From NCBI GenBank assembly GCA_963837465.1, contig CAWINB010000001.1, positions 369,929 through 433,928 of the forward strand: a DNA stretch of 64,000 nt, written 5' to 3'. A program made the translations under genes and the position numbers. Within the stretch, counting starts at the first letter, position 1, and every line of letters begins with the position of its first letter. Below are positions 11,777-61,883 of the stretch, piece by piece. The DNA comes from Candidatus Doudnabacteria bacterium (GTDB lineage: Bacteria; Patescibacteriota; Doudnabacteria; UBA920). The notes beneath the pieces are model-generated. The model ran no database searches, was not told where the DNA came from, and saw nothing but the letters and a program-made list of their open reading frames with translations.

Positions 11777-11841
11777 TTCCAGCGGTTAGCGTATAGCGTC
11801 AAGTGATTAGTTCTATACCCTATACCCTATACCCTAACTTT

Positions 11842-39782: not shown

Positions 39783-40889
39783 TTTTTTTGGAAAATGCTT
39801 TCGGAAAATTTTATATTATTTGGCGTTCCGGATTAAATTTTGCGTTTATTTTTGTGTCATTTTTCCTAATATCGGATAAGCGATATCTGTATTAATTATA
39901 GCCTTTACCTAAAATCGGGGTCAAGGAATATAAAATAAAAAATGATTGATATTTATAAAATTTGTGTTTCATAATTTAGTAAAAACTAAACCGGAATTTT
40001 GAATAAAATAACTACAAAACCAGCCATGAAAATAAGAGCTTTGGCGGGTAATTATAAATCTGCTTACTTTTTCTTTTTTTGAATCAGGTTTTTTATTTAG
40101 TTTATGAAACATCAATATTCACTAGCTGATTACTCAAAAATACACTTACTCTGCCGACCCATAAATATCGGCTTCTAAAAAACCCATAAACGCTTAGCAA
40201 GCCCGCGGTTAGCGCGATTGAGCAATTTCAAGCTTTTTAAAATGAATAGCGATAGCGTTTTAAAATTTAATATCGGAGCGATTCTAAAATATTTCATTTA
40301 AGAAGCTTCGCAAAAATTACCTCTTATCGAATAACAAAATTAACCATCTCGGATATCCCAAATGGGATAATTTTAAACAAATTTTTGCTCCTAAAGCAAA
40401 ACTGCTTATAAGGCAGATAATTTATAATTAGCTTAGGATAAAATAATTAATTGATTAGATGACACTTTATATTTATTACGCTCAATGAATATAAAAATTA
40501 TTATTTTCAACCCTTATACCATGAAACAGCAATTGTTTAAAGAAAGTTGACTTTATTTTGTTGCACAGCTTGATTTTGAATAAATTCAGCGGAATCTGAT
40601 TATCTAATTAAATTATCCACAGCTAGTATCACTCAAACTGCTTTCTTTTTGTTTTATGCTGCTATATCATCGGCTCGTTTGACAAGAAATTTTTTATGGA
40701 ATAAGCTTAAAAAGCCAAAGAAATTCCTTAACAAAAAGAGTCTTATTTGGGGAAGTCGGGTGAGAATTATCATAATAAGATGATTCAATTCCCGCGCTGT
40801 GCCGCAACTGTAAATTCGCCCTTCGGCGGATAAGCCAGATCGCCGAATAAGGTCTATTCCCGAGCAGGACAATTGCACCCGTAATTTCA

Positions 40890-40914
40890 CCGTCCCTGCC
40901 TGGGGCGGTTTTTT
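40890..40914 (+). terminator. intrinsic terminator-like hairpin immediately upstream of the 40930 start codon (possible attenuator or sRNA 3' end)
   Basis: ccgtccc-tgcct-ggggcgg is a 7-bp stem including one G-U pair, followed by TTTTTT. It lies 15 nt before the ATG at 40930 at the end of a 1.1-kb non-coding region. Confidence 0.35.
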
Positions 40915-40929
40915 AATTAACAACCCCTC

Positions 40930-43399: not shown

Positions 43400-43436
43400 C
43401 CCCTGACCCCTATCCGCTAAAACCTAACCCCCACCT

Positions 43437-45104
43437 ATGTCCCCGGATTTTTCTAAAATCGGCTACTACGACTTAAAACTGGAAGCGCGAAACCTGCGCC
43501 TGCCCAAAGTTGTGGGCCTGCAAAAGGAAACCGCCCGCTTAAACCGCATCCTGGCGCGCGACCTCCAGCACAACGCCATAGTTTGCGCTCCGTCCGGCTG
43601 CGGCAAAACCGCGCTTGTTGGCGCTTGGGCATTACAGGCGCTTGAAAACCCCTTGTTTGGGGGTAAAAAAATAGCCATGCTGGATTCCGGAAGCCTGCAA
43701 AAAATCGGCCAACTGCCGCAAAGCTCGCTGGCCGGTTATCAGGAAGCTTTCCTGTCGCTTTCAAACTGCGTGTTGATAATAGACAGCTTCGGGGAAATGA
43801 TTTACCAAAGCCTGGGCTCCTTACAAAACTGGAATACTCTTTTAAAGCCGTTATTTTTTAAGCCCGATGTTAATATCATCCTGAATACGCAGCCGGAAGA
43901 ACTGAAATGGCTGCGGGACAACAAGAGCCATTTCTTAAGCCACTTTGAAGTCTTGAAACTGGAAACGCAAAAGACAGAAGAGCTGAGAGAAATTTTAAAC
44001 CAAGCCGCCAAAAAAACCGGCGGGAGGGTTGGCATTGATGCCGATGCCCTGGATTTGATGCTGCGGCTTTGCGAACGTTTCCCAAGCCTGGGACAACTGC
44101 CTAAAAGCGCGCTGCAGTTACTGGATGAATCTTTGGCGGAAATTAAATCCCTCCCGGGCGCGTTATCGCACCGGCTTACGCGAGCGGTTGTGGAAAAAAT
44201 CGCCTCGGAAAAAACCGGCGTTCCCACCGGCCGCCTGGCCGAGGACGATAAAACCATGCTTAAAAATTTACCGGATATTTTGCAAAGCAAAATTATCGGC
44301 CAAAAATCCGCGCTTTTAAAAATGGCTTCGGTTATCCAGCGGGCCCGCCTGGGCCTGCGGGGCCAAACCAGGCCGCTGGGTTCCTTTTTGCTGCTGGGAC
44401 CCTCGGGCGTGGGCAAAACCGAAACCGCCAAAATTTTGGCGGAAACTCTTTACGGTTCCGCTTCCAGCTTTTTAAGAATTGATATGTCGGAGTTCGGCGA
44501 AAGCCACTCCGCGGCGCGCCTGCTGGGCAGCCCGGCCGGTTACGTGGGTTTTGAAGCCGGCGGCCAGCTGACCAATCATTTTAAAAACCATCCTTACAGC
44601 CTGCTGCTTTTGGACGAAATTGAGAAAGCTCATCCGAAAATTTTTGATATTTTTCTGCAAATCCTGGATGACGGCCGGGTAACATCGGGGGGCGGCGAAA
44701 CCGCGGACTTAACGCAGAGCATTATTATGGCCACGTCCAACCTGGCTGTGCAAAAAATTCTGGATGCCTTTGCCGAAAACCCCGAAGCCGGTGATGAAGA
44801 TTTCCTGAAAAATTCCGTCATGCCCGAACTGCTGAAACATTTCCGCCCGGAATTTTTAAACCGCTTTGACAGCATTTTAATTTATAAACCTCTGTCCCTG
44901 GAAGACTTAACCGACATTGCCCTGCTGGAAGTTGGCAAGATAGAAGCCAGGACAAAAGCCCACAATATTAAATTTGCCGTAACCAGGGAAGCGCTGCGGG
45001 ACAAAATCATAGCTCTGGCCGATCCCCGTTTTGGCGCCCGTCCGGTTAAACGCTTTGTGGAAGAAGCCTGTGAAAATCTGATAACGCGGGCGCTGCTTAA
45101 ATAG
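43437..45104 (+). CDS. truncated Clp/Hsp100-family double-AAA+ ATPase (ClpB/ClpC-like, no N-domain or middle domain)
   Basis: The D1 region matches ClpB (RLNRILARDLQHNAIVCAPSGCGKTALV; KIAMLDSGSL; LLKPLF...DVNIILNTQPEE; the sensor region RLCERFPSLGQLPKSALQLLDE) but its Walker B is IIDS, not DE. D2 is canonical: LLLGPSGVGKTETAKILA, LLLDEIEKAHPKIFDIFLQILDDGRVT, SNLA. Confidence 0.8.
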   Translation: MSPDFSKIGYYDLKLEARNLRLPKVVGLQKETARLNRILARDLQHNAIVCAPSGCGKTALVGAWALQALENPLFGGKKIAMLDSGSLQKIGQLPQSSLAGYQEAFLSLSNCVLIIDSFGEMIYQSLGSLQNWNTLLKPLFFKPDVNIILNTQPEELKWLRDNKSHFLSHFEVLKLETQKTEELREILNQAAKKTGGRVGIDADALDLMLRLCERFPSLGQLPKSALQLLDESLAEIKSLPGALSHRLTRAVVEKIASEKTGVPTGRLAEDDKTMLKNLPDILQSKIIGQKSALLKMASVIQRARLGLRGQTRPLGSFLLLGPSGVGKTETAKILAETLYGSASSFLRIDMSEFGESHSAARLLGSPAGYVGFEAGGQLTNHFKNHPYSLLLLDEIEKAHPKIFDIFLQILDDGRVTSGGGETADLTQSIIMATSNLAVQKILDAFAENPEAGDEDFLKNSVMPELLKHFRPEFLNRFDSILIYKPLSLEDLTDIALLEVGKIEARTKAHNIKFAVTREALRDKIIALADPRFGARPVKRFVEEACENLITRALLK

Positions 45105-45109
45105 ACACT

Positions 45110-45228
45110 TAACACGGATATACCGACGCGACGCGGATCTACGGACATCTACTGATTCTAAGAGCCTGGCGACATCCGTAGGCATCGGTAAATCCGTTTC
45201 TAATCCGTATATCCGCGTATATATATTT
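45110..45228. repeat. duplicated intergenic spacer, copy 1 (about 119 bp, runs from stop codon to start codon)
   Basis: The repeat reads taacacggatataccgacgcgacgcggatctacggacatctactgattctaagagcctggcgacatccgtaggcatcggtaaatccgtttctaatccgtatatccgcgtatatatattt and is followed directly by an ATG. Its ends are inverted repeats (cggatatacg / cgtatatccg). TATATAT sits 3 to 4 nt before the ATG. Confidence 0.8.
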
Positions 45229-45531
45229 ATGAGCAACGAAACACTCCATCCCAAAGAATTTCCGCCAATAACTCCGCCGCGAAACGGCGGCGGTACGGAT
45301 AATTTAAGCAAACAGCGGATTCAAAGCCTGGCGGTCCAAAGGAAGCAATGTTTGGAAGGAATCAAACCGGATATTTCCCGCAAGCTTTATTTTATGCTGG
45401 AAGAAAAGCTGGAAAAAGAACAAAAAAACCTGGAAGAAATTCTGGACTGGCAACAGGGAAAATTAAGCCGTCTGTCCAGGTACTCGCTGATTCTGGATTC
45501 GCATTATTTTGAACAGGAATTTTTAAGCTAA
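45229..45531 (+). CDS. hypothetical protein (100 aa)
   Basis: The ORF is bracketed exactly by the two copies of the duplicated spacer. It has a coiled-coil-like C-terminal half and no recognised family. Confidence 0.45.
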   Translation: MSNETLHPKEFPPITPPRNGGGTDNLSKQRIQSLAVQRKQCLEGIKPDISRKLYFMLEEKLEKEQKNLEEILDWQQGKLSRLSRYSLILDSHYFEQEFLS

Positions 45532-45653
45532 CACGGATATACCGACGCGACGCGACGCGGATCTACGGACATCTACTGATTCTAAGAGCCTGGCGACATC
45601 CGTAGGCATCGGTAAATCCGTTTCTAATCCGTATATCCGCGTAATATATATTT
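45529..45653. repeat. duplicated intergenic spacer, copy 2 (about 125 bp)
   Basis: It is near-identical to 45110..45228. It carries one extra gacgcg hexamer and one extra A. It again spans stop codon to start codon. Confidence 0.8.
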
Positions 45654-46943
45654 ATGAACTACGTTACCCTGGGCCACAATGTTTTCCGCGGCAAGTCCAC
45701 ACCCATACAGTTTTTGGATAATGACCGGCTGCGGCATATGTATATGATAGGCAAAACCGGCGTGGGCAAATCCACCCTGTTTGCCAATATGATGCTGCAG
45801 GACATTATTAACCTGCGCGGCGCCTGCTTTATAGACCCTCACGGCGAGGCAATATCGTGGCTGCTGCAAAACATCCCCAAAGGCCGGCTGGAAGATGTGA
45901 TATTGTTTGACCCATCCAATACGGAAAATCCCGTAGGCTTAAATCTCCTGGAAGCTAGCACGGAAAGCGAGCGGGATTTTTTGGTTGGCGAACTTATTGA
46001 AATTTTTTACAAGCTGTTTGATCCGCAAAAAACCGGCATCATCGGCCCGCAATTTGAACATTGGCTGAGAAACGCGGCGCTGACTATTATGGCCGACCCG
46101 GCCGGTGGCAGTCTTTTGGAAATTCCGCGGCTGTTTACCGATAAAAGCTTTGAGCGCCACAAACGCGAATTTGTTAAAGACCCCCAGGTAATGGAATTCT
46201 GGACCGGACAGATGGCTAAAACGAGTGATTTCCACAAAAGCGAAATGCTGAATTATTTTACTTCCAAATTCGGCCACTTTTTAAACAATTCGCTCTGCCG
46301 CAATATCATCGGCCAAAACCACAGCGGCTTTAATTTTGGGGACATTTTAAAAAAAGAAAAAATCCTGCTGGTGGATTTATCCAAGGGAAAAATCGGCGAA
46401 CTTAATTCCAGATTTTTGGGTTTGATTTTAATTTCCAAGCTGCAGGCGGCGGTGCTGAAACGGGCGCGCCTTAAACCCGGCGAGTATCCGCCGTTTTACC
46501 TTTACGTGGACGAGTTCCAGAACATGACCACGGATACTTTTGCCAGCATGCTTTCGGAGTCGCGCAAATACGGGCTTGGCGTGCACCTGACCAACCAGTA
46601 CTTCCAGCAGCTGCCGCAAAATATCCAGGACGCGGTCCTGGGGAACGCGGGCACGCTGCTGAGTTTTGCCCTGGGCGTGGAAGATGCCGAACTGTTGGAA
46701 AAGCAGCTATATCCTTTTACCAAAGAAGACCTGTCCAATTTGGGAAAATTTAATTTTTACATTAAGCTGATGTCCAACGGCCAGGCCACGCAGGCTTTTT
46801 CCGGCATCAGTCAACAGCCCTTAAAGCGGGCCGAAACCGACCACGGCGAAACCATAAAAACCCTGAGCCAGCTGGCCTACGGCAGTCCCCGCCTGCTGGT
46901 GGAACAGGAACTCCAGCGCAGAATAAGAACGAACGGCATTTAG
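45654..46943 (+). CDS. soluble VirD4/TraG/TraD-like (type IV coupling protein family) P-loop ATPase
   Basis: Walker A is YMIGKTGVGKSTL. Walker B plus the downstream motif FYLYVDEFQNMTTDTFASMLSESRKYGLGVHLTNQYFQQL...LGNAGTLLSF matches the TrwB/VirD4 pattern hhhDE...(R/K)K.G....Q...QL. There is no N-terminal TM segment and the protein is only 429 aa. Confidence 0.65.
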   Translation: MNYVTLGHNVFRGKSTPIQFLDNDRLRHMYMIGKTGVGKSTLFANMMLQDIINLRGACFIDPHGEAISWLLQNIPKGRLEDVILFDPSNTENPVGLNLLEASTESERDFLVGELIEIFYKLFDPQKTGIIGPQFEHWLRNAALTIMADPAGGSLLEIPRLFTDKSFERHKREFVKDPQVMEFWTGQMAKTSDFHKSEMLNYFTSKFGHFLNNSLCRNIIGQNHSGFNFGDILKKEKILLVDLSKGKIGELNSRFLGLILISKLQAAVLKRARLKPGEYPPFYLYVDEFQNMTTDTFASMLSESRKYGLGVHLTNQYFQQLPQNIQDAVLGNAGTLLSFALGVEDAELLEKQLYPFTKEDLSNLGKFNFYIKLMSNGQATQAFSGISQQPLKRAETDHGETIKTLSQLAYGSPRLLVEQELQRRIRTNGI

Positions 46944-46965
46944 TGTCAAGGGTGACCCTTGACAC
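46943..46965. repeat. 23-bp perfect palindrome GTGTCAAGGGTGACCCTTGACAC (copy 2)
   Basis: It overlaps the stop codon of the T4CP-like gene. The same element is at 21048..21070. Confidence 0.7.
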
Positions 46966-46978
46966 TAAATGTAAATTT

Positions 46979-47011
46979 AAACCTCCTTGAGGGTAGACCT
47001 CAAGGAGGTTT
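46979..47011. terminator. terminator hairpin between convergent genes
   Basis: aaacctccttgagg-gtaga-cctcaaggaggttt is a perfect 14-bp stem. A T-rich run follows on the plus side. Confidence 0.55.
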
Positions 47012-47946: not shown

Positions 47947-50900
47947 TTAAGACAAATTCTGCGGTATCACCAACTCATACCCTACCTTAAGCGTCTTGGT
48001 ATTGCCGGGGATGCTTAAACAACGGGGGTTGGCGGCCAGGATGGCTCTCCAGTTGGAGACGCTGCCCGTCAGCTTTTTGGCAATTCCCGACAGGGTGTCT
48101 CCTTTCTTAACCGTGTAAGTAGTGGAAGCCGACGAGGTAATAGAAGCTCCCTGGACCTGCGGCGATGGTTGCTGCGGATATTCCATCTGCAGTCCCTGGA
48201 AATTGGCCGGCATCTGCAAGCCCGTAAAGGGTTGGGTTACGGCCGCGCCAAGCACGGAAACACCGCCCGTTGCGTTGACTTGAATGCTAAACTGGCAACT
48301 ACTGCTTATGTTCAGCTGGTTGGTAACCTGGACAATAAAATTGTAGGTACCCGCTGTCGTAGGCGTGCCGGAAATTTGGCCGGTGGAAGTGTTAAAGTAA
48401 AGTCCCGGCGGCAAGGAACCGCTGATAAGGCTAAAGCTGGTGGAAGAAGCCCCTCCGACCAAAATATTGCTGTTGTAACCCTGGCCTAAATTAGCCTGGG
48501 GCAAAGAAGTGGTAAGGAAATAAGGATAGTAGGAAGTGCCGTAGCTATAACCATAACTGGTACCCGTCCCGCTGCCGGTTGATGTGCTGCCGGTTGAGCC
48601 GGTATTGCTTGTGCCGGAGTTACCGGAACTTGCGGCCGCGTTAATGGTAATCGTCAAGGGCACGGAACTGCTGACCAGGCCATTGCCATCGGTAACCCCC
48701 GCGTAAAAAGTATAACTGCCGGCTGTGGTTGGGGTGCCGCTTAAGCTGCCATTCTGGCTTAAAGTTAATCCCGGGGGCAAATTTCCGGTATAAGAGAATG
48801 TCAGGGCAGTGTTGCTGGAAGACGAAGCCTGCAAATTAGTGGTCGGGTAAGCCTGTCCAGCCGTGCCATTGGGTAATGATGTTGTGGTTAATACAGGCGG
48901 GGCAACAGCAGAAGCCCCTCCCGAGGCGGCAGCAGGATTAACAGTCAGGCTAAACTGGACTGAAGTAAAATTACCCAGGGAGTCCGTGGCCACAACCGAG
49001 AAACTACTGCTACCGGCCGTGGTTGGAGTGCCGCTGATAAGTCCGGAAGGGCTTAAAGTCAACCCGACCGGCAAGGTACTGCCGGTGGCCAGGGCGAATG
49101 TTATGGCTCCCGTGCCCGTGCCGGACAGGATATTTAACTGCTGGCTATAAGCAGTCCCCACAGTGGCGGCGGGAATGGAAGTCGTGGTGATAACCGGAGA
49201 GGCGGCAGTTCCGGTGGTTCCGGATGTCTGAGCAGCGGAAGACGCGGCGGGCACGGTTACGGAAAGAGCGTTGGAAAACAAAGTGGGATTAGCGCCATTG
49301 GCCACCTGTATTGTATATTGTCCGGCAGACAGGGCGCCATACAGTACCGTAATTTGGCTGTTATTGGCGGAAAGAATGCTTACCCCCATTACCTGGCCGG
49401 CGCTGTTGGTCATATGGACAATATCCGAGGTAGCGTTGGCGGCAAAGCCGCTGCCGGTAATTACTATCGTACCAGCCTGCTGGTTAATCGTGGCAAGGCT
49501 GATGGTGGGGGCAGCAGTGGAGCCGACAACCGCGGAACCTCCTGTTGAGCCTCCGGACGAGCCTGCAACGGTTGAAGCTACCAGCATACTCCATGGCAAA
49601 CTTACAGTATTACCGGCGCTGTCTGTAACAACCACCGTAAAACTGTAAGTGCCGGCTGTGACTGGAGTCCCGGTAATTGTTCCGTTGGCATTTATTGTAA
49701 GTCCAGGCGGAAAATTTCCGCTGCCGGAAAACTTATAGCCTGTACCGCTGCCGCCGACAGCGGAAAACTGCCCAACGTAGGCTACCCCAACCGTAGCCGT
49801 GGGAGTGGCCTGGCCGGTTATGAAAGAGAGGGTCGAAGATGTTGCGGCCGCTCTGCTGGCCTGTACGGTAAAATTTAAATTACCTATTGCCGTGGCCGAT
49901 GATTGAGAAGCACCCACGGACCAGGTTTCCGCCCATGCGCCAATATCAGCGGTTACCATCTGGCCGGATATAACCAAACTGCCCGACGCGGGTATGGTTC
50001 CATAATTGGTTGTCGATAACGCGCCCGCGTTTTGAGAGGCGCTGCCATAAACATTCAAACCAGCGGCACCGGTAATGGTAAGCTGCCAATTATCCCCTAC
50101 GGCCAAAGTGGCGGCATTGGCAGGCGATGTAAGATTGGCAAAAGTCAGGCTGGTGGCCGCGCTGCCCACTGTGGGTCCGTTCACAACAGTCGCTCCTGTA
50201 GTACCGCCGGTTCCGGATCCCGTGGTTGCTGCTGTGGATCCGTTAAGGGCGACCGGATTTGTGGTCGCGGTAGAAGATGGTTTGCCTATGTAATTGGTGG
50301 TGGAAACAAACGAGCCCGGTTGAGCATTAGGGTTGTCGTGATAATATTGAGCCGCGGCTATCTCGCTCTGTACAAATCCTGTAGCCACATTTGCCGGCGA
50401 GGTTACAAACCATTGGGCCAGGTTGCCGGCATTCATTTGGGTACCGTCGGGAAACTGGATCATCCACTGGCTGGCGCCGGCGGCATTGGCTTGGAACGGG
50501 CTGGCCGCAGTATAAGTGGTAATAGGGACCAGTACAGCCGTGCCGCCAAACTGCTGAGCCAGCCACTCGGCAGTTGCCTGGGTGGCATAGTTGGCAGGGT
50601 TAAGCGCCTGACTCTGTCCGGTTGGTAAATAAACTACGGCAGCATTGGTAATAAATGTCGGGGTAAAAGGAACGGTTGCGGGGCTGACTGTAAAATTAAG
50701 GGTATTGCCGACCTGCTTAAGGCTACTGATGCTTGGGTTACTGGGCGGTGTTGCGTTTGCGGCAAGAGAACTTCCAACCATAATGCTGACGCTCCAAGTG
50801 CCGACATCGTTATTTGTTAAAATCGGGCCCATGGTCTGCAAATTACCGTTGGCATCTGTTATTCCAAGGTAAATGGTTCCGTTTTGGTTGATACCATAAA

Positions 50901-53900
50901 CAGGCGCGTTGGGAGTGGCGCCGGTAACGTTAATCACCCAGTTATTTCCAACTCCTATGGTATTGCTGGAGGTGCCAAAGGTACTCATGGTCGCCGTAGA
51001 GCCGGTTACGGGAGTGCCGGTGGGGACTACCCCTTCGCTACCTGTAAGCGAAGGAGCGGCCGGAGAGGTGGCTGACTGCCCTAACTGCGGCGTTACGCTA
51101 AAATTCAGGGTGCCCGCGCTTACTGCCGAACTGCCGCTGGCAGCGCCAATTGTAAATTGCTCGCTCCAATTGCCTACTTGCTGATCGCCGACAGTTCCAG
51201 CCAATACCAACTTGCCGCCTTCAATAGTACCCATCTGGGTAGTAGTCTGGACACCATTTTGGATACTGGTGGCGAACACGGGAGTACCATCTTTAGTGCC
51301 GGCAGGAGCCGTAATAGTAATAGTCCAGTTATTGCCTACGGACAGGTTTGAATTATTGCCTGAGTCGGTGGAAAAACTAACATTGCTGCCCGAAGTACCG
51401 TTAACTACTGTAGGGGTAGCTTGGGCGCCGCTTGACGCAAGAGAATTATTAGCGGCTCCAAGTTGATTATAGGCCTGAACAAACAACTGAAAAACCGCCT
51501 GAGAGACCGGGGTCACGGTACCGGCATTATATGCCTGTAATTGAGAACTAAGACTGGCTAGATTTGAAGCCGTAATCGGCGGAATACCCGCTACCGAGTT
51601 ACCATTGGCATCAACAACAGTTACCGTCACGCTGCCGTTGCTGTTTTGGGTAATTTGGGTAGTAACACCTGCCGGGAGTGTTGCTGGGAGAGAAGGCGCG
51701 GTACCTATGGTACCGGACGACCCGCTCCCGGTGGCGCTGCCCACCGTACCCACGGTTAATTTCTGACTTTGTCCAATGCTGGCAATGGCCGATAAGGTGG
51801 CCTGGGAAATATTGGGATTAAGAGTGCCGTTAACGTAGCCTGAATAAGTGCCATTGGCGTTCTGGACGACCGTAACATCACCATTGATGGCGTTACCATT
51901 GGCATCTGTTCCTACATAAGCCAAAACTCCGGCAGTATTATTGACAGTGGAAGGAAATACTGTATATGGAGTGTTGTCGGTCACGCTACCGGCAGTAAGC
52001 GCGCTTTGGATTGCGGCAACTTGCGCGGCTGAAAATTGATTGGTAATATCAGCACCCGAAGAGTCTAAAATTCTTCCGGTGGAAGTTACGGTAAGAATTT
52101 GAGGTGTATTATTTACATTTATAGTTGCGGACAAACCTCCGCCAGAAACTTGAGTGACAGATGAACTAAGCGTAACAGTAGGATACGCAGTAGTGATGGA
52201 ACCAATACCACTAGCTCCAACAGTAACAGGCTGGCCGCTGGCAGTCGAGTAAGGGGAACCGCCGACCGGTACGTTGTAGTAAGGTGTACCATCGGAAAGA
52301 GTTCCGGCAGGAGTTAGATTTGCGTAAAGAAGCGGCTCGTCCCAGGAATTACTAGAAGCGTTGTAAGTCCATGTATTCCCGGAAGAATCCGTATAGGTTG
52401 CGCCATTGGCCGGGTTGGTTGGAAAAGTTGTTGAAGTTGCCGCAGTAACATTAACAGTCCGGCTTGTCGAAACTGTAGAGTCGTTCGGATCTGTATAGGT
52501 AATGATATAAGTGCCCGCGGGGGAACCGGCAGGGACAACGCCGCTGACCAAGGGAGTGCTACCATCGGAAATAGTGGCGTCGGGATCAGTAAAATACTGG
52601 CCGACAGTCAAGTTCATCACAGAATCACCATTTAATGTTATGGTGGGGGCGGCAGGGGCGGTAACAGTTACAGTCCTTGTTACTGGAGAAGCATTCGTAA
52701 AACTATAGGTAACGGTGTAAGTGCCTGGCTGACTAGTATTAACATTCCCGCTTCCTGTGATATCACTACTAATTTCATTGTCATTTTCATCATAGACGTT
52801 TGCGCCGGCATCCGCCCAAGTACCGCCTTGTTGAACCGTATCGTTGCCAGTATTTAATTTGATTGTGTAGGAAGCATCTTGGGTGGGGTCAGTAACATTA
52901 ACAGTCCGGCTTGTCGAAACTGTAGAGTCGTTCGGATCTGTATAGGTAATGATATAAGTGCCCGCGGGGGAACCGGCAGGGACAACGCCGCTGACCAAGG
53001 GAGTGCTACCATCGGAAATAGTGGCGTCGGGATCAGTAAAATACTGGCCGACAGTCAAGTTCATCACAGAATCACCATTTAATGTTATGGTGGGGGCGGC
53101 AGGGGCGGTAACAGTTACAGTCCTTGTTACTGGAGAAGCATTCGTAAAACTATAGGTAACGGTGTAAGTGCCTGGCTGACTAGTATTAACATTCCCGCTT
53201 CCTGTGATATCACTACTAATTTCATTGTCATTTTCATCATAGACGTTTGCGCCGGCATCCGCCCAAGTACCGCCTTGTTGAACCGTATCGTTGCCAGTAT
53301 TTAATTTGATTGTGTAGGAAGCATCTTGGGTGGGGTCAGTAACATTAACAGTCCGGCTTGTCGAAACTGTAGAGTCGTTCGGATCTGTATAGGTAATGAT
53401 ATAAGTGCCCGCGGGGGAACCGGCAGGGACAACGCCGCTGACCAAGGGAGTGCTACCATCGGAAATAGTGGCGTCGGGATCAGTAAAATACTGGCCGACA
53501 GTCAAGTTCATCACAGAATCACCATTTAATGTTATGGTGGGGGCGGCAGGGGCGGTAACAGTTACAGTCCTTGTTACTGGAGAAGCATTCGTAAAACTAT
53601 AGGTAACGGTGTAAGTGCCTGGCTGACTAGTATTAACATTCCCGCTTCCTGTGATATCACTACTAATTTCATTGTCATTTTCATCATAGACGTTTGCGCC
53701 GGCATCCGCCCAAGTACCGCCTTGTTGAACCGTATCGTTGCCAGTATTTAATTTGATTGTGTAGGAAGCATCTTGGGTGGGGTCAGTAACATTAACAGTC
53801 CGGCTTGTCGAAACTGTAGAGTCGTTCGGATCTGTATAGGTAATGATATAAGTGCCCGCGGGGGAACCGGCAGGGACAACGCCGCTGACCAAGGGAGTGC

Positions 53901-54717
53901 TACCATCGGAAATAGTGGCGTCGGGATCAGTAAAATACTGGCCGACAGTCAAGTTCATCACAGAATCACCATTTAATGTTATGGTGGGGGCGGTCGTGGT
54001 TTGAAGCGGGTCGTTCCAGGTATCAGTAGAAGCGTTGTAAGTCCATACAGTCCCGGAAGGATCAGTATAGGTATCACCATTGCTTGGATTGCTTGGAAAA
54101 TTTGCCAGATTGCTTTTACTAGTTCCTGTGCTAGGGTCAGTAGTCGTTACATCCAAAATCTGACTGTTGGGATCTGATGAAGCATAATAATTACCATCGG
54201 AGCCCAGGTAAACAGTGACTGCCGAGCCGTCACTGACATACCAAGCATTTGTAGGAGTGGTGCTAACGGTGACAGTATTAGGGTCAGTAGTTACACCGCC
54301 GCCATCCCCGCCGCCATCCCCGCCGCCGGAAGCGCCTTGGTCAGAAGCACCCGCGTCGCCGCTAGCGGCAAGCATCTCTTCTGCTTTAGCCTGCTTCGGG
54401 CCTATGGTATTTTGGTAAATGCCGCCGAAAATTTTATTTAACGTATCTTTTATTTTGGATGTGCGGGCTGTTTGCTCCTGGCTCTGCGTGCTGACAAACT
54501 GGGTATCCTGGGTTTTTGGCACTACTGCTCCAGCTCCCCCAAGCAGCGTAGCTCCCACGCCCAAGCCCGCGACCACTTTTTCCTGGGTTGTAATTTTTTT
54601 CTTATTTCGTTTTACGCGTTTTATTTTAACCTTATTCATGGGGTTTTTATAATGATTGGCTGGTGAATGTTTAGGCTCGTGCTTGCGAGTCTTCCCAGGA
54701 GGTTTTGTTTTAGGCAT
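47947..54717 (-). CDS. giant (2,256 aa) TM-anchored surface protein: basic cytoplasmic tail, single TM, tandem Ig-like (DUF5011-type and putative-Ig-type) domains, C-terminal LysM
   Basis: The N-terminus [17 protein letters not shown]...KRVKRNKKK is followed by the TM [19 protein letters not shown]. A 149-aa unit ([28 protein letters not shown]...[24 protein letters not shown] plus [69 protein letters not shown]) is repeated 3.5 times identically. Later regions such as [69 protein letters not shown] are putative Ig domains. The C-terminus is LysM: [31 protein letters not shown]...[10 protein letters not shown]. Confidence 0.85.
   Translation of the reverse strand: [2256 protein letters not shown]
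52440..54000. repeat. perfect tandem repeat, 447-bp unit x about 3.5
   Basis: Identical small ORFs recur in the track at a 447-bp period (52511/52958/53405 and 52879/53326/53773). The repeat lies inside the CDS and encodes two Ig-like domains per unit. Confidence 0.9.
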
Positions 54718-55845: not shown

Positions 55846-57138
55846 CTACATCCCCGCCATCTGCCAAACTTTTGCCGCCACGTCGCGCGGTCGGCCCAGG
55901 AGCGGATCGTGGTGGAGGTTAATAAAAGGCAGGGAGTTGACTTCTATAAAGCCGCAAATCTGATTTTTGTAAGATTGGGCGATATCGGGAATAATAAAAT
56001 CAAATCCCACCAACGGATCGCCCAGGGCCCGGGCAGCCTGTTCAAACAGCTTAAGATTATCCGGATGGCAAACATCAAACTCCTCGGCGGACGAGCCGCC
56101 GTAATTAACGCCGATTTTTTCGGACAGGTTAACTGTTTCGCCCGCTTTTGGGACAGATTGCAAACCAAGGCCCTGCCTGGATAAAAATAATTCCGCGGCC
56201 TCATCGGTCGCGATATTTTTTACGCCCGGATGAAGCGCCTGGTTTTTAATATCCGCCAGTTGGCTTATTGTATTATTCCCGTCCCCCGTTATTGTCGGCG
56301 GATCGCCGCGCAATACTCCCACGGTTTCAAAATTAACCGCGGCGCCGCGGTAAACAGGACCGAAAATTTGCCGCTCTATTATTACCCAGTGGCACAGCTG
56401 CTTGGCAATTTTAAAAGCTTGCGCCAAATCTTTTTCCGTACGGACAAATGTCGTGGTATGGCGGCCGCGGCTGCCTGCCCGCGGTTTAACAATTACGGCT
56501 GACTGCTGACTGCTGACTGCTGACTGCTGGATTTCCCTAAAAATTTTCCTGGCCTGGCTGAAATTCGTTGCCGATCCCCCTTTGGGAACCGGCAAACCGC
56601 GCTCCATCATAATCTGTTTAAACAACCACTTGTCGTCCATCAAATCCAGCAAGGGATTGCTGTAGCCCTCCGGCCGCGGCAGTCCGCTAAAGAGAATCGT
56701 GGAGTCGGCAGCTGACAGCCGACGGCTGACGGCTGCGTACGTATCAAAGGGCTTTCCGAATATCAGCAGCTCGGACATTTTAATCCCCCGCTTATCCGCC
56801 TCCTCCCACAAAACCTGTGCCCGGCGGACGGCGCATTTGGTCCGGTCATTTTGCCGGCTGATAATCTTTAACCGCTCCGCGGCAGCCAACGCGGCCAGGG
56901 AAACTTTTTGGTCCCAGGCTTTTTTTTTAATATAGCCGGTAAAGCGATTGTACAATACTTTTTGCCGCAAAGGCGTAAGAAGGATATTCAGGCTTTCGTT
57001 GTACCAGTAAAGCCGGTGCGGCACCGGATTGTTGCCGCAAAACCGGCAGGCGGTTTTTAACCCAGTATTTTTTTTCTTTTGATCCATAAAAAGGCCGAAG
57101 CCGCCGCGATAAGCGACCCATAAATTATTAAAGTCCAC
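55846..57138 (-). CDS. ATP-grasp domain protein resembling the N-terminal/ATP-grasp half of cyanophycin synthetase (no Mur-ligase domain)
   Basis: NLSEKIGVNYGGSSAEEFDVCHPDNLKLFEQAARALGDPLVGFDFIIPDIAQSYKNQICGFIEVNSLPF resembles the CphA ATP-grasp C-terminal region. VIVKPRAGSRGRHTTTF is an ATP-grasp K-loop-like motif. The true start may be internal, since the first ATG overlaps the neighbouring gene. Confidence 0.6.
   Translation of the reverse strand: MDFNNLWVAYRGGFGLFMDQKKKNTGLKTACRFCGNNPVPHRLYWYNESLNILLTPLRQKVLYNRFTGYIKKKAWDQKVSLAALAAAERLKIISRQNDRTKCAVRRAQVLWEEADKRGIKMSELLIFGKPFDTYAAVSRRLSAADSTILFSGLPRPEGYSNPLLDLMDDKWLFKQIMMERGLPVPKGGSATNFSQARKIFREIQQSAVSSQQSAVIVKPRAGSRGRHTTTFVRTEKDLAQAFKIAKQLCHWVIIERQIFGPVYRGAAVNFETVGVLRGDPPTITGDGNNTISQLADIKNQALHPGVKNIATDEAAELFLSRQGLGLQSVPKAGETVNLSEKIGVNYGGSSAEEFDVCHPDNLKLFEQAARALGDPLVGFDFIIPDIAQSYKNQICGFIEVNSLPFINLHHDPLLGRPRDVAAKVWQMAGM
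56497..56526. repeat. heptanucleotide microsatellite (GACTGCT x4) inside the ATP-grasp CDS
   Basis: The sequence is gactgctgactgctgactgctgactgctgg. It encodes QQSAVSSQQSAV. The unit length is not a multiple of 3. Confidence 0.7.
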
Positions 57139-57440: not shown

Positions 57441-57478
57441 ATTACCGCGGCATCATTTGTAATTTGGTATTTGTCATT

Positions 57479-58891
57479 TTAATTACTGCTCCAGCTAATC
57501 TGCTGATAACCCGAAGACGACAAAGGAAAGCTCGGCGGCGGGGAATACAATAAATAAGAGTCGTAGTTCTCGTACGTATTGGTGTATCCCGATACCACCG
57601 GTCCGTTGGTGCTGTTTACCCAGTTCCAGGTCCAGGTAGTGTTGCTGGCCAGGGTGCCGTAAACTGTAATTGAATTTTTAAGGCTGCCGGGGTAGTACCA
57701 GAGCTGATCAGCGCCGTTTTGGGCAATAAGCGCGGCGTCAATTTCCAGATTATTGGGCGACTCGTAAGTTACCAGAATATTCTGCTGGCCGATAAGCCCC
57801 AAGGAATTGGTGCCATCTTTGACCGCGTAGACAATATTGTTGGGGATCATAATGTTCGGAGCGGTTAACGAGTTATAAGGCAGCATGGCGGCCGCCACCA
57901 TAACCCGCCCTTTAACCGTCCCCTCCACCCAAACATTGTCTTCAATATAAATAATACCGTTGGCGGGAATTGGTATATTGTAAAGCAGGGTCCGGTTCTG
58001 ATAATCCAGGCTGTTGGTATGCGCGTTGCCGCTGGTATCATAACCTTCCGGCTCCCCTGCCACCAGCGAAGTCACCTTGTAAACATTTACCGTGCCGTTA
58101 TTTTGGAAAACCAGGGAATAGCCCTGGGCGTTGGAAGGCGGTAAAAACAAGCCTCCGCTTTGGGCGCTGCTCTGCAGCGCGGCTAAATTGGCGGTAATGG
58201 AAGAAAAGTCGGTATTGGGTACCGGAAACTGCCAAAAATTCCGGGTTGAGGTTGCCGCGCTCCCCCAAATGCCGTTTTGGGTGGAAGGGCAGGGCGGACT
58301 GCCGTAAATAGCCGCTTCGCAAGTGTAGGTGCTTTTAGCGGACATAATAGGCGCGTTAGCCGTGCCGTCAAAACGGACACCCCCGTTTGTAAAATATTCA
58401 CCGCTGACACTCTCGGTGCTGCCGATCCAGTCGTCGCTGTTGGCCAAAAACGCGTACTGGGCCAAGGAAGGAATGCCGTAGAGTACTGTAACCGTACGCG
58501 CGGCTTGCGGATCCGCCAGGGTGTAACCGGTGGACCGCACGGCGGTTATGGTTGAGCCAATGCTTGGCGGAGTAATAGTCAGGCTGAACCGGCCAATGGT
58601 TTGGCCGGTGCTCTGGTCCACGTAATTATGGACATACGGTCCGGGGGTGGTACTGGCGTTACCGTCCCAAAAATCAGAGGGAAAATTGGCCAGGTGCCAT
58701 TCATAATAATTAGTCCCGGCTTCGGCAATCTGAAAAGCCTGGTCGCTGGCAATGGTACTCCTGGTCACTCGCAATTCCAGGCTGGCCGAACTGAGCAATC
58801 CCACCATAACCAGGCTGAAAATAAAAATCATGATCACCATGTAGATGAGGATGGAGCCGGATTGGGGTTTTTCATTTAAGCATTTAAGCAT
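57479..58891 (-). CDS. PilX-like minor pilin / pilus tip-associated protein
   Basis: The N-terminal hydrophobic helix followed by SSASLELRVTRS matches the PilX_N pattern (..SSLELRMAGN). The 470-aa size and position in the minor-pilin operon fit the call. Confidence 0.6.
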   Translation of the reverse strand: MLKCLNEKPQSGSILIYMVIMIFIFSLVMVGLLSSASLELRVTRSTIASDQAFQIAEAGTNYYEWHLANFPSDFWDGNASTTPGPYVHNYVDQSTGQTIGRFSLTITPPSIGSTITAVRSTGYTLADPQAARTVTVLYGIPSLAQYAFLANSDDWIGSTESVSGEYFTNGGVRFDGTANAPIMSAKSTYTCEAAIYGSPPCPSTQNGIWGSAATSTRNFWQFPVPNTDFSSITANLAALQSSAQSGGLFLPPSNAQGYSLVFQNNGTVNVYKVTSLVAGEPEGYDTSGNAHTNSLDYQNRTLLYNIPIPANGIIYIEDNVWVEGTVKGRVMVAAAMLPYNSLTAPNIMIPNNIVYAVKDGTNSLGLIGQQNILVTYESPNNLEIDAALIAQNGADQLWYYPGSLKNSITVYGTLASNTTWTWNWVNSTNGPVVSGYTNTYENYDSYLLYSPPPSFPLSSSGYQQISWSSN

Positions 58892-58918
58892 AATAGCATT
58901 TAAGCATTATGGCACCGG
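58872..58918. repeat. left arm of the roughly 40-bp imperfect inverted repeat bracketing the four-helix-bundle cassette
   Basis: tcatttaagcatttaagcataatagcatttaagcattatggcaccgg pairs with the reverse complement of 59358..59398 (ccggtgctcccatgcttagatgcttctatgcttaaatgccc). It overlaps the first codons (MLKCLNE) of the PilX-like gene. Confidence 0.65.
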
Positions 58919-58955
58919 AACATTTAGCGTAGAAGCATCAAAGTATGAAAACATT

Positions 58956-59333
58956 CTAAGAGGTTGCCTCTTTAGATTTTTTAATGGCCTCAACTGCTTT
59001 CCAAAGCATTGCGCCTATTTCTTCCGACATTTGAAATCCCTCATTATATTCTTCCTCAGTTATCCAGTTCTCTTTAAAAGCAAAATAAAGAAGATACTTT
59101 GATTCCTTTAATGAACCGTAAGAAATTTCCCAAAAATTTATTTTTACCGCCAATCTTTGTCTGGCGTAACCTTCTATGAAATTCAAAATGACGGACAAAG
59201 TCGCTCTCCTAAATTGCGAATTTGCTCCATATAACTCTTCCTTAGGAAATTTTCTTGTAATTTTATACACGAGATGCGTATAAGTATCCATTTTATTTTT
59301 TAATGAATCTAAAAATGAGTCATTCTTTGCCAT
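58956..59333 (-). CDS. four-helix-bundle protein (23S rRNA intervening-sequence protein family)
   Basis: YKITRKFPKEELYGANSQFRRATLSVILNFIEGYARQR matches the family pattern ([26 protein letters not shown]). The protein is 125 aa. Confidence 0.8.
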   Translation of the reverse strand: MAKNDSFLDSLKNKMDTYTHLVYKITRKFPKEELYGANSQFRRATLSVILNFIEGYARQRLAVKINFWEISYGSLKESKYLLYFAFKENWITEEEYNEGFQMSEEIGAMLWKAVEAIKKSKEATS

Positions 59334-59357
59334 GCCATTTGTTTAAATGATTGTATA

Positions 59358-59398
59358 CCGGTGCTCCCATGCTTAGATGCTTCTATGCTTAAATGCCC
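59358..59398. repeat. right arm of the inverted repeat bracketing the four-helix-bundle cassette
   Basis: See the left arm at 58872..58918. Confidence 0.65.
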
Positions 59399-59405
59399 TA
59401 TGAAT

Positions 59406-60041
59406 CTAACTACCCAAATTTGTCTTTAAATTCCTGATTGCCGCGCTGGAGGTTACCGTGTAAGTGTTGGTGTCCTTTACCCCGGCTTTATTGTAAATCT
59501 GGAGCAGGACTTTAACAAACTTAACCTGGGTAACGTTGACCGGCTGGACGAGTGAGGCCTGGGTAGTGGAGCCGGTATAAGCGCCATCATAATAATAAAA
59601 TACCGGACTTAAACCGTTGGCCAGGTCTTTTTGCACCACGTAAGTTGTTTCCGTGGAAGTGTTGTAAGTGCTGCCGTTATAGCTGGTCAGGCCTTCCCAC
59701 AGCTGATTATTCTGAGTAAAGTACCTGATTCTTTCCACAGCCGGATTGTTATTGATGGTGGAGTAAAAAATAATCTGCTGGGCGGCCGCGGTGTCCAAAA
59801 CATAAGCGCCGTTGCTGCCGGTTTGGGCGTTGCGGAGCTGGCTGGTTATGTTAAAAGCCAGCGCTCTGGCCTGGTCGCTGTCGCTTAAAAGGCCGGCCTG
59901 CCGGTTGCCGTAAAAAAAGACACGGGCGACCAAGCCTATCATGCCCCAGGCAATAAGGCTGAAACCTAAAATCACCACCATGATTTCCACCAAAGTAAAT
60001 CCCGACTGTTTTTGATTCTTAATTCTGTATTCTATATTCAT
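59406..60041 (-). CDS. type IV pilin-like protein (minor pilin)
   Basis: QSGFTLVEIMVVILGFSLIAWG is a prepilin cleavage/methylation motif. Confidence 0.75.
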   Translation of the reverse strand: MNIEYRIKNQKQSGFTLVEIMVVILGFSLIAWGMIGLVARVFFYGNRQAGLLSDSDQARALAFNITSQLRNAQTGSNGAYVLDTAAAQQIIFYSTINNNPAVERIRYFTQNNQLWEGLTSYNGSTYNTSTETTYVVQKDLANGLSPVFYYYDGAYTGSTTQASLVQPVNVTQVKFVKVLLQIYNKAGVKDTNTYTVTSSAAIRNLKTNLGS

Positions 60042-60050
60042 AATTCTTAT

Positions 60051-61883
60051 TTATGGGCTCATTAACACCGTCAGCGGCGGCTGGTCGGCGCTAATGCTGA
60101 GCGGAATATTGCTCTGGGTTTGATAACCGGCCATGGAAACGGTAACGCTGTAATTATTGCCGGCGGTTAAGCCGGTAAAAATTACCTGGCCCGGGGTGAA
60201 GCAGCCGGTAACAAAATTGGCCGCCACCGAAGTTAACACCGGCGTTTTAGCCGGGTCTTGGCTTGACAAAAAAACCTTATAGCGAAAATAACGGTTGCTG
60301 TTTAAGCTTGGACCTATGTCCTGCCCAGGGGTAGTAAAATAAGTATTGGCGGTACCGTCGGGGCCGACGTAATTCCAGGTAGCATTGTCGTTATTGGCCG
60401 CCACCTGAAAGGCCAGGCTGGTGGAAGCGCTTTGTGAAGAAGGCAGCCAGGTCAAAATTGTATAATCAGTCTGGCCGGTTCCGGTATCAAAAGTGGAAGA
60501 TTCCAAAGTGCCGGTGGCCGTTACATAACTGCCGCCGACCTGGTTTAAAACCACGCTGCCGGGATTGGTAACGTTAACATTACCGTTGTCCTGGAAATAC
60601 TGGTTGGGGGTGGTGGTGCCGAACGAAGAAGCGCCGCTGCCGCCACTCCAGTCATTCTGGGTCCAAACGCTGCCGCCTGTAAAAAGCGTTTCCAAAGGAG
60701 CCAATCCCCGCGAAAGCGTTACCGAAGCGTTTTCCAAAGCTGTGCCGCTGGAAGCATCCTTAACTATGACCAATAAATTGTTCGGCGTGGGACTGGTGCC
60801 CAAGATTATTGTAAAGGTCTGGGCAGTAGCGGGCAAAACCGAAACTTGCTGGACAGGCGAAGTGCCGAACACCACCCACGGCTGGCCGGTCAGCAAAACC
60901 GGAGTGTAAGTATCCCACTCAATGTTGTTTAAATTAATAACGCCGCCGGACGAAGAAAAATTTTGGCTGTACTTATACAACCCGCTGCCCGGAGGCGTAG
61001 TAGTGGCCGCGCCGATAAGTTTTGAACCCGTGACATTAACATTTACTCCGCTTAAGGCATTGCAGGTGGAATCCAGAGTTTTAATATTCAAGTTAGCCAA
61101 CCGGTCGATGGAAAGCGTCAGCTGGGTTATGGTGCCGGTGGCTACGGTCGCGTCGGGATGGATGGGATTGGGATTTTGCGGGGTTATCGGGTAGGTCTGG
61201 TCGGTAGAATAACCAGGCTCCGTGGCCACAATACGGTAATCATTGACAGCGGCCGGCAGGCCGACTTCCGTAACCTGACCGCTGCCGTTGCTGGTATCGG
61301 GCAAATCGTAGGTATACGGGCTGGTGGTGGGATAGGTAATTGTCACCGAAGCTCCCTGCAGATACTGGCCCTGGGAATTAATCACGTTAACCTGCAGGGC
61401 GCCTGTATTCGGGTTGGTAATAAGTCCCTTGGGAGAGACTGTGGTTAAAAAATCAGTCACTTGCCCGGAAGAAGTATTTAAAATACTCATTTTTACCTGT
61501 TTGTAATCCGGCGTACCCGTGGCCGTATCAGCAGCGTCGTGCACATAGCTGACTTTGTAATAAATATCGTAGGTATAAGGCCCTATGGTCTGGCTGACGG
61601 CATTGGGCAAATCCGGCAATTGGCCGCTTGGATTGCCCTCCAAAGTGCCAACCTGGCTGTAGGGCATGTTGCGCGCAATTTCCAGATAATTGGTGGCTAG
61701 GCTGGAAAGGATAATTTTTTCCCGGGCCTTTTTCACCGATTGCCCAAGGACGGCAAAACTGGCCAGCATAGCCGTGGCCAAAAGGGCAAAAATAAACAGA
61801 GTGACCAGGAGTTCCATAAGGGTAAATCCTGAATGACTTTTGCCGGACTTTGGTTTAAAAAAATAGCTTAAAAATTTAGTCAT
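60051..61883 (-). CDS. large (610 aa) prepilin-type protein (PilV/PilY-like minor pilin or tip adhesin)
   Basis: HSGFTLMELLVTLFIFALLATAML is a prepilin motif. The long Thr/Ser/Gly-rich beta-type C-terminal region is consistent with a pilus-associated adhesin. Confidence 0.7.
   Translation of the reverse strand: MTKFLSYFFKPKSGKSHSGFTLMELLVTLFIFALLATAMLASFAVLGQSVKKAREKIILSSLATNYLEIARNMPYSQVGTLEGNPSGQLPDLPNAVSQTIGPYTYDIYYKVSYVHDAADTATGTPDYKQVKMSILNTSSGQVTDFLTTVSPKGLITNPNTGALQVNVINSQGQYLQGASVTITYPTTSPYTYDLPDTSNGSGQVTEVGLPAAVNDYRIVATEPGYSTDQTYPITPQNPNPIHPDATVATGTITQLTLSIDRLANLNIKTLDSTCNALSGVNVNVTGSKLIGAATTTPPGSGLYKYSQNFSSSGGVINLNNIEWDTYTPVLLTGQPWVVFGTSPVQQVSVLPATAQTFTIILGTSPTPNNLLVIVKDASSGTALENASVTLSRGLAPLETLFTGGSVWTQNDWSGGSGASSFGTTTPNQYFQDNGNVNVTNPGSVVLNQVGGSYVTATGTLESSTFDTGTGQTDYTILTWLPSSQSASTSLAFQVAANNDNATWNYVGPDGTANTYFTTPGQDIGPSLNSNRYFRYKVFLSSQDPAKTPVLTSVAANFVTGCFTPGQVIFTGLTAGNNYSVTVSMAGYQTQSNIPLSISADQPPLTVLMSP

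Follow-up and report, generated by a model that had tools for sequence, protein, structure and literature searches.

A minor-pilin operon in the genome of a Candidatus Doudnabacteria bacterium carries, between two of its pilin genes, a small gene for a four-helix-bundle (4HB) protein of the PF05635/TIGR02436 family, enclosed by inverted arrays of a short tandem unit. The operon lies in the stretch of 64,000 nt that we analysed (hereafter the window; GenBank assembly GCA_963837465.1, contig CAWINB010000001.1, positions 369,929 to 433,928 of the forward strand). The interpretation that we favour, with some reserve, is that this feature is a resident copy of a widespread promoter-less PF05635/TIGR02436 cassette, which is bounded by inverted short-unit arrays and probably processed by RNase III within the operon mRNA. 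Its parts are the following, with coordinates counted from the first letter of the window and the arms named in transcript sense.

59406..60041, minus strand: prepilin-type minor pilin of 211 aa (p211; N_methyl/TIGR02532), the upstream host gene
59358..59398, minus strand: 5' arm, a tandem array of the 8-nt unit xxAAGCAT
58956..59333, minus strand: 4HB gene, 125 aa (PF05635/TIGR02436)
58921..58954, minus strand: inner, more degenerate copies of the 3'-arm unit, between the 4HB stop codon and the main arm
58873..58918, minus strand: 3' arm, a tandem array of the unit ATGCTTAA, with inverted repeats I1 and I2
58889..58891, minus strand: PilX-like start codon, located within the 3' arm, 12 nt from its outer end
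57479..58891, minus strand: PilX_N-type minor pilin of 470 aa (p470; PF14341), the downstream host gene

An initial annotation of this DNA had described a four-helix-bundle gene of the rRNA intervening sequence (IVS) family, bracketed by inverted repeats of roughly 40 bp that would pair in the transcript, the left one supplying the first codons of the PilX-like open reading frame (ORF). All these elements were recovered. An inverted-repeat search returned arms of 39 nt (repeat I1, 58880-58918 and 59358-59396) that are 82% complementary and 439 nt apart, and they pair with each other when the minus-strand transcript 58860-59410 is folded (z = -6.6, with none of 100 shuffles as stable). The isolated arm stem comprises 35 bp in four segments, at -52 kcal/mol. 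From outer arm end to outer arm end the cassette measures 517 nt, and only 12 nt separate its 5' arm from the stop codon of the pilin gene upstream. Each arm holds three to five copies of the 8-nt unit: written as units, the 5' arm reads GGGCAT TTAAGCAT AGAAGCAT CTAAGCAT GGGAGCAC CGG and the 3' arm CCGGTGCC ATAATGCT TAAATGCT ATTATGCT TAAATGCT TAAATG. Tandem Repeats Finder (TRF) delimited the arrays at 58873-58908 (4.5 copies) and 59369-59396. The inner 3'-arm units, with matches at 58925-58954, belong to a further inverted repeat (I3, 58923-58947 and 59368-59392; 25 nt, 84%) and would offer the 5' arm an alternative pairing register. The 12-mer GCATTTAAGCAT, allowing at most one mismatch, has five matches in the 64 kb against 0.64 expected, all of them in the cassette arms; outside the cassette the window has no further arrays of this unit beyond chance, nor does it hold a second copy of the cassette. 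Across the cassette GC content drops to 0.33, from about 0.52. No Rfam family was detected in the window, and both flanks of the cassette are protein-coding pilin genes.

We searched for the same architecture around relatives of the 4HB gene in species-representative genomes. The sample comprised 80 loci with 86 PF05635 genes, from Patescibacteria, Bacteroidota, Nitrospirota, Verrucomicrobiota, Planctomycetota, Omnitrophota, Desulfobacterota and others (labels with the prefix L denote the loci compared in this study). An arm score was computed by local alignment of the 150 nt upstream of a gene with the 150 nt downstream of it, taken as reverse complement. Among the 86 PF05635 genes 74% scored at least 24, the threshold used, compared with 4.9% of the 511 further ORFs that these loci contain (Mann-Whitney p=3e-31). 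When the sense RNA was folded to minimum free energy, at least 20 bp joined the two flanks in 77% of cassettes and in 18% of size-matched control ORFs. TRF arrays were present on both sides of 67 of the 86 genes when any period was counted, against 22 of 482 controls for which only periods 7, 8, 14 and 16 were counted, so that this comparison is an approximate one. Periods 7 and 8 dominate the flanks of the 4HB genes, with a median of 4.25 units per arm, and the arms sit close to the ORF (median gaps of 12 nt ahead of the ATG and 7 nt past the stop codon). Chance is excluded as the source of the paired inverted arrays.

Complementarity of the arms was assessed locus against locus; unit arrays slip in register, which leaves positional homology ambiguous among the four syntenic orthologs described below. 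For 47 of 57 5' arms the 3' arm of the same locus was the best partner, and for 56 it ranked among the top three. Arm sequences are thus unrelated between loci but complementary within each locus, which amounts to covariation at the level of the family. Orientation is also strongly biased: of the 68 cassettes whose two neighbours both lie no more than 400 nt away, 55 were co-oriented with both neighbours and 3 were antisense to both. Since, in addition, a promoter scan found no promoter-like site ahead of the 4HB gene of the window, expression of the cassette appears to depend on host transcription. The neighbours are ordinary host genes, among them classic operon pairs such as GT2/GT2, SmpB/PLD, RF2/PAP2, MoxR/DUF58, epimerase/UDP-GlcNAc 2-epimerase, GH57/UppS and XerC/UvrD. 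Chitinophagaceae loci have kept the cassette between identical neighbours. Cassettes with the unit family of the window (xxAAGCAT / ATGCTTAx) and proteins 63-73% identical were found at different junctions in further Patescibacteria: following an ATP-grasp gene (L003), between a prepilin peptidase and a pilin gene (L085-L087), and in L036 and L016. Because unit family and related protein recur jointly at these other junctions, the arms travel with the gene.

None of the 80 sampled relatives is located in an rRNA gene; each copy, and also XCC0516 of Xanthomonas campestris, lies in an operon, and the 13 loci with poor ORF neighbours had no rRNA or other Rfam family at the cassette. In this sample, operons are where the PF05635 family is found, and the ORF-bearing rRNA IVS would be a special case. 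In the 16S and 23S rRNA insertions of the candidate phyla radiation, 23S_rRNA_IVP ORFs have been reported in few, among hundreds dominated by homing endonucleases (PMC11270868). A tblastn search of 50,697 phage records gave no match. The family is routinely annotated as "four helix bundle protein", and full-text searches, which covered few subscription journals, turned up no account of the cassette as a resident of operons, of its tandem-unit arms, of the orientation rule or of the link to heptamer arrays.

Membership of the 125-aa protein in the IVS family rests on two profiles, PF05635 (87.6 bits, cutoff 33.8) and TIGR02436 (84 bits, cutoff 24), and on its predicted fold. The monomer model, made with AlphaFold2 from 33 homologs, has a mean predicted local distance difference test (pLDDT) score of 95.4 and four helices (residues 2-26, 34-56, 61-87 and 93-124). 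Its best Foldseek match in the PDB is 2GSC, the crystal structure of XCC0516 (template modelling (TM) score 0.82, root-mean-square deviation 1.4), which is cited as "the S23p structure"; phmmer aligns the two proteins with E=6.7e-9. The next matches are 2RLD (TM 0.80) and the Avd protein of diversity-generating retroelements (DGRs; 4DWL, TM 0.75). All three entries contain five chains, and the 4HB protein is likely a pentamer. Homology of PF05635 proteins to Avd has been reported (PMC10053308). In the source annotation the gene begins at Met15 (P0001, 111 aa), which omits window positions 59291-59333; the upstream ATG at 59333, giving 125 aa, is supported by the N-terminal motif (F/Y)LDxLKxKMD, which is conserved in the orthologs. 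The cassette encodes no transposase, recombinase or nuclease domain, the helical bundle being its sole ORF.

The host operon runs, in transcript order and entirely on the minus strand, from p610 through p211 and the 4HB ORF to p470. Two further features of it are needed here.

60051-61883, minus strand: prepilin-type protein of 610 aa (p610; N_methyl and CarboxypepD_reg)
57453..57479, minus strand: solo heptamer array (AATGACA, AATACCA, AATTACA, AATGATG; TRF) at the junction of the PilX-like gene and p127

The leader of the PilX-like protein, MLKCLNE, is encoded by units of the 3' arm, and no later start codon is possible, since the PilX_N hidden Markov model (HMM) begins at residue 11. The start lies within the last 3'-arm units in all four carriers of the cassette at this junction, namely the window, L002, L083 and L012 (leaders MLKCLNE, MLICLD and MFKCLNE). 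At an independent site, in L085, the last 3'-arm units encode the pilin leader MLKCK/SFTLIEL, and the first 5'-arm unit contains the stop codon of the upstream gene; L085 is a second, independent instance of an arm that donates a start codon.

At the next junction, after the PilX-like gene, the other three carriers have ORF-less tandem-unit hairpins (L002 5783-5885, z -4.2; L083 3712-3792, z -6.7; L012 6848-6950, z -3.7). The unit varies among species, and that of L002 belongs to the unit family of the cassette arms. The window has z -1.1 at this position, and its array at 57453-57479 probably represents a hairpin of this general sort, without an ORF, that has decayed. Heptamer arrays with units other than that of the cassette occur in the window at 60022-60051, 57453-57479, 56498-56529, 56711-56735, 11813-11836 and 12915-12947. 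One of them encodes the leader of the 211-aa pilin, MNIEYRIKN. An ATP-grasp ORF contains two direct arrays, of GCTGACT (4.6 copies, perfect) and GCTGACG (3.6 copies), and two more arrays lie near 12 kb.

The history of the insertion could be followed with a profile of the PilX-like protein, which retrieved 42 orthologous metagenome loci at 48-68% identity. The order p610-p211-p470 is kept in at least 40 loci, comprising all those that span the junction. About 35 orthologous operons lack the cassette, and in these p211 nearly abuts p470, the spacer being mostly about -3 to 60 nt and in a few cases up to about 130 nt; no 4HB gene was found at the p211/p470 junction of these compact operons. The cassette occupies exactly this junction in L002, L083 and L012, the last from a Doudnabacteria metagenome-assembled genome. 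Neighbour-joining on three concatenated host proteins placed the window, L002, L012 and L083 in one clade together with L088 and L089, and all outgroups are compact. L088 (2905-3050) and L089 (3880-4030) have spacers of 120-140 nt with tandem 8-nt units (AAGTATGT/AAGGATGT, 3.5 copies; AATTGACA) and no ORF, which look like decayed remnants of cassette arms rather than hairpins. Because some 35 operons are free of the cassette and the carriers and remnants form a single clade, we infer one old insertion that has been inherited vertically. The data point to a single entry, in the ancestor of a small clade of Patescibacteria (Doudnabacteria-like), and in the simplest history of these sequences the cassette was inserted once and passed on vertically, and its ORF was lost twice. 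The mobile IVS-type insertion into the operon that the initial annotation had suggested thus stands as an insertion, with the cassette-free operons as its evidence; a recent jump out of rRNA does not, since the cassette is old and vertically inherited.

The protein has been conserved throughout. Identity between carriers is 72-79% for the 4HB protein and 62-70% for the flanking proteins, and dN/dS (the ratio of nonsynonymous to synonymous substitution rates) is about 0.08-0.1 among the 4HB orthologs, with synonymous sites saturated. Such a low ratio marks strong purifying selection and suggests that the protein is made and matters. GC content at third codon positions is 0.31 in the 4HB gene and 0.58-0.62 in its neighbours; despite its long residence in the operon the gene has stayed AT-rich, so this composition looks maintained and not a sign of recent transfer. 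The cassette is also lower in GC than its flanks in nearly all of the 80 other loci.

The closest described counterparts are the ORF-bearing IVSs of 23S rRNA in Coxiella burnetii, Leptospira and Haemophilus, which share with the cassette a PF05635 protein, low GC, sporadic occurrence and ORF-less relatives. In Coxiella the IVS is 428-444 nt long and closed by a terminal stem of 28 bp; it contains an S23p ORF, has a lower GC content than the genome, and is excised in vitro by RNase III, which acts at the stem; its S23p is reported to be decaying and probably not made in vivo (PMC4990558). The window cassette likewise has an S23p-family ORF, a size within 0.4-0.8 kb, GC below that of its host and a terminal stem that encloses the ORF (35 bp as against 28 bp, in 517 nt as against 428-444 nt). 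This likeness is drawn from the published description of the Coxiella element. The differences are that the host RNA of the window is a polycistronic minor-pilin mRNA and not helix 25 or 45 of 23S rRNA, that the 3' arm overlaps the start codon of a host gene, that the window protein is under purifying selection, unlike the Coxiella S23p, and that cleavage by RNase III has been seen in Coxiella and is inferred here. The window cassette is built like an ORF-bearing rRNA IVS but does not lie in 23S or 16S rRNA.

These features suggest how the cassette may work. It would be transcribed as part of the pilin operon, and its arms would pair in the transcript to form a stem of about 35 bp, looping out the ORF and bringing the end of the pilin gene beside the start of the PilX-like gene. 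RNase III requires roughly 20 bp, fewer than the window stem has, and it would cut the stem as it does in rRNA IVSs, releasing the cassette RNA and separating the host cistrons. The cut would, moreover, make accessible the PilX start codon, which lies in the 3' arm and would be buried as long as the stem is intact. The 4HB protein, a probable pentamer related to Avd, would probably recognise the unit arrays. Cleavage of the pilin mRNA by RNase III is plausible on these grounds.

Several results weigh against this proposal. In 57 cassettes the mismatches on the sense strand comprise 69 G:U and 97 A:C pairs, with no excess of G:U, and the window stem is equally stable on both strands (-52.0 and -52.9 kcal/mol). 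These results do not support selection for an RNA stem in the sense transcript; the sole strand-specific feature is a 5' arm that is richer in purines than the 3' arm (41 loci, against 15 with the reverse). Simple pairing fails to account for arms that are tandem arrays of 7-8 nt. The spacers of L088 and L089 fold no better than shuffles (z -0.6 and -0.7). Finally, the Coxiella S23p is reported to be probably not made and the 4HB protein here is under selection, so that the two cases may differ.

The tandem make-up of the arms is what a second explanation addresses, one that we entertain tentatively and that is compatible with cleavage by RNase III. According to it, a pentamer of the 4HB protein would act in trans and bind about four to five cognate units of 7-8 nt, both in its own arms (autoregulation) and in ORF-less arrays or hairpins at many further operon junctions; each genome would have a repeat family of its own, in which the cassette, as the copy with the ORF, is the "autonomous" member. 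The binding of GAG repeats by TRAP (the trp RNA-binding attenuation protein) offers a likeness. We searched for 14-mers of each cassette's own arms (at most one mismatch) within 5 kb on either side at 55 loci, with PF05635 cassettes masked and the reversed pattern as control. Outside the cassettes there were 49 same-unit sites, in 26 of the 55 loci, against 8 for the reversed pattern (Wilcoxon p=4e-5). Many of the 49 are solo arrays or convergent (inverted) pairs at other gene junctions. Same-unit arrays without an ORF were located as follows.

L024: 6585-8256
L032: 766-793, 4269-4296 and 6834-6899
L036: 8433-8560
L048: 3044-3078 and 7123-7157
L062: 6379-6458
L073: 247-303 and 2126-2168
L079: throughout the locus

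In X. campestris the gene of XCC0516 lies between accB and accC with inverted GGGAATC arrays as arms; the ATG of accC directly follows the last unit of the array. At the orthologous locus (L130, Xanthomonas campestris GCA_035012225.1) the arrays are at 3430-3464 and 3845-3872, the gene is at 3501-3830, and an additional GGGAATC array (7260-7287) lies 3.4 kb downstream of the gene. GGGAATC is also the heptamer of 186 dispersed arrays in X. campestris, typically of four units and mostly between co-directional ORFs; 70 convergent pairs were described among them, positional conservation of the arrays between species is 90%, and the arrays are transcribed and were read as G-quadruplex sequences, with the PF05635 gene unmentioned (PMC4692102). 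A second dispersed heptamer, TAACTGA, is known from Beggiatoaceae, Cyanobacteria and Bacteroidetes, and arrays of the two heptamers often occur as convergent pairs that are positionally conserved and transcribed (PMC4692102, PMC4679880). The cassette arms resemble dispersed heptamer arrays in having about four copies of a 7-nt unit, in lying in spacers between co-directional genes and in often ending at a start codon. They differ from them in that those papers name no associated gene and propose G-quadruplex or translational elements, and in that the unit of the window has 8 nt and is found only at the cassette. The short tandemly repeated repetitive (STRR) sequences of cyanobacteria are likewise dispersed tandem heptamer repeats.

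Arms of about four to five units, the five chains of 2GSC, 2RLD and Avd in their crystals, and the same-unit ORF-less arrays together point to a protein that recognises arrays, and the ORF-less array hairpins at the next operon junction of L002, L083 and L012 fit this as well. On the other side, the cassette unit is found nowhere else in the 64 kb of the window, where the other arrays have different units; copies of the cassette in one genome often have different units (L051, L066, L076); and the enrichment of sites could stem from common descent or local duplication.

A third explanation, which we regard as rather improbable, places the function of the arms in DNA: they would be terminal inverted repeats, acting as arrays of protein sites or as single-stranded DNA hairpins in insertion and excision, and the RNA hairpin would be incidental. 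The missing wobble signature in the arm mismatches and the equal stability of the two strands agree with it, as do the existence of empty sites, the joint divergence of arms and protein, and the presence of the xxAAGCAT lineage, with its 63-73% identical protein, at at least four junctions (L003, L085, L036 and the window clade). The cassettes also recall insertion sequences (ISs) with their MITEs (miniature inverted-repeat transposable elements), and REP-associated tyrosine transposases (RAYTs) with repetitive extragenic palindromes (REPs) or bacterial interspersed mosaic elements (BIMEs), in that a genome holds one coding copy and many short ORF-less hairpins sharing its terminal sequences. 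In contrast to those systems, the cassette has no known catalytic domain (transposase, recombinase and nuclease domains are all missing), its arms are tandem short units instead of a single palindrome, and its copies are positionally stable, with long site stability across species and families in the window clade and the Chitinophagaceae loci. No direct repeat that could be a target-site duplication is visible outside the window arms, and of the marks of a transposon or MITE (a transposase, target-site duplication, near-identical copies) none was found in the window, though empty sites and other insertion sites of this lineage exist. The 55-to-3 orientation bias would be unexpected for such an element, although the need of the ORF for a host promoter could explain it.

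That the arrays mediate slipped-strand phase variation, or are an ordinary intergenic hairpin or terminator flanking a small gene by chance, is very improbable. Units of 7-8 nt are not multiples of three and extend into pilin genes at their 5' ends (in the p470 leader and, at 60022-60051, in that of p211), and the 4HB stop codon is covered by a weak terminator-like hairpin; but terminator-like sites are not enriched (4 found, 7.1 expected), every ATGCTTAA unit contains an ATG, so that a change in copy number need not shift the frame, and the paired, complementary arrays recur at PF05635 genes whose operons are unrelated and belong to many phyla, with no particular tie to genes for surface proteins. 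Least credible of all, and effectively refuted, is a DGR Avd acting on the neighbouring pilin genes: PF05635 is homologous to Avd (PMC10053308), 4DWL matches with TM 0.75 and the bAvd and NF033474 profiles match weakly, but these scores stay below cutoff (NF033474 30.4 bits, cutoff 80; bAvd PF22296 29.2 bits, cutoff 40), no reverse transcriptase was found in the 26 window ORFs scanned or beside 10 other cassettes, and self-BLAST gave no template/variable pair near the cassette. With the Avd of Bordetella phage BPP-1 (bAvd, PDB 4DWL and 8UB7) the protein shares the homologous four-helix bundle, with five chains in the crystal; the window differs in having no reverse transcriptase and no template/variable repeat, and its Avd HMM matches remain below cutoff. 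Avd itself is a basic nucleic-acid-binding accessory protein. A 135-bp direct repeat (45110-45238 and 45529-45663; 94% identical) lies 13 kb away; its copies differ by indels and not at adenines, each ends at an ATG and has internal inverted repeats, and it resembles an upstream region that has been duplicated rather than the template/variable pair of a DGR.

The window has other features of note. Within a 2256-aa ORF (47947-54717), a 447-bp unit is repeated about 3.5 times with 100% identity (52443-53993), reflecting either an expansion in the very recent past or an artefact of the assembly. The region 25295-39782, which comprises a 4438-aa ORF (26466-39782) and the ORFs just upstream, contains numerous diverged internal repeats, from about 130 bp upward in length and 77-91% identical. 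The region 40000-47000 begins with low-GC (0.34) non-coding DNA at 40-41 kb, followed by an unassigned 669-aa ORF, a ClpB-like AAA+ protein and a TraG/VirD4-like coupling protein, and may be an integrated mobile element. The ORF at 1515-2435 matches only the C-terminal two thirds of a Mutator-family (IS256-like) transposase model and is probably a truncated IS copy.

To our knowledge, neither a function nor an origin has been established for rRNA IVSs and S23p proteins since about 1990. The PF05635-type fold is essential in DGRs. With the window and about 130 related loci, the usual home of the cassette appears to be the spacer between co-transcribed genes, with the ORF-bearing IVS as a special case. 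Its arms are inverted arrays of a lineage-specific unit of 7-8 nt, and in about half of the loci ORF-less arrays of the same unit stand at nearby operon junctions. The operons that the cassettes interrupt are housekeeping ones (accBC, MoxR-DUF58, polysaccharide and pilus genes), and the arms can donate stop and start codons to host genes. In a large CRISPR discovery screen, "23S rRNA IVP" was among the proteins associated with CRISPR arrays (PMC10910872); tandem-unit arms may have been miscalled there as CRISPR-like arrays.

This broader pattern around PF05635 genes is of more interest than the hypothetical RNase III step. It makes the PF05635 protein a candidate partner for the long-unexplained heptamer repeats of bacteria, and accB-XCC0516-accC with the GGGAATC arrays of X. 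campestris makes the problem experimentally tractable in a cultivable organism. As a speculation, which we put forward with caution, PF05635 cassettes could be the coding members of a very large unrecognised class of prokaryotic elements whose ORF-less members are the GGGAATC, TAACTGA and STRR arrays, the array hairpins of operon junctions and the ORF-less rRNA IVSs, with a pentamer that reads about five tandem copies of its own lineage-specific unit and controls processing, translation or spread of every array of that unit in the genome. If this were true, one system would account for both the 30-year-old puzzle of the IVS and S23p and that of the heptamer repeats.

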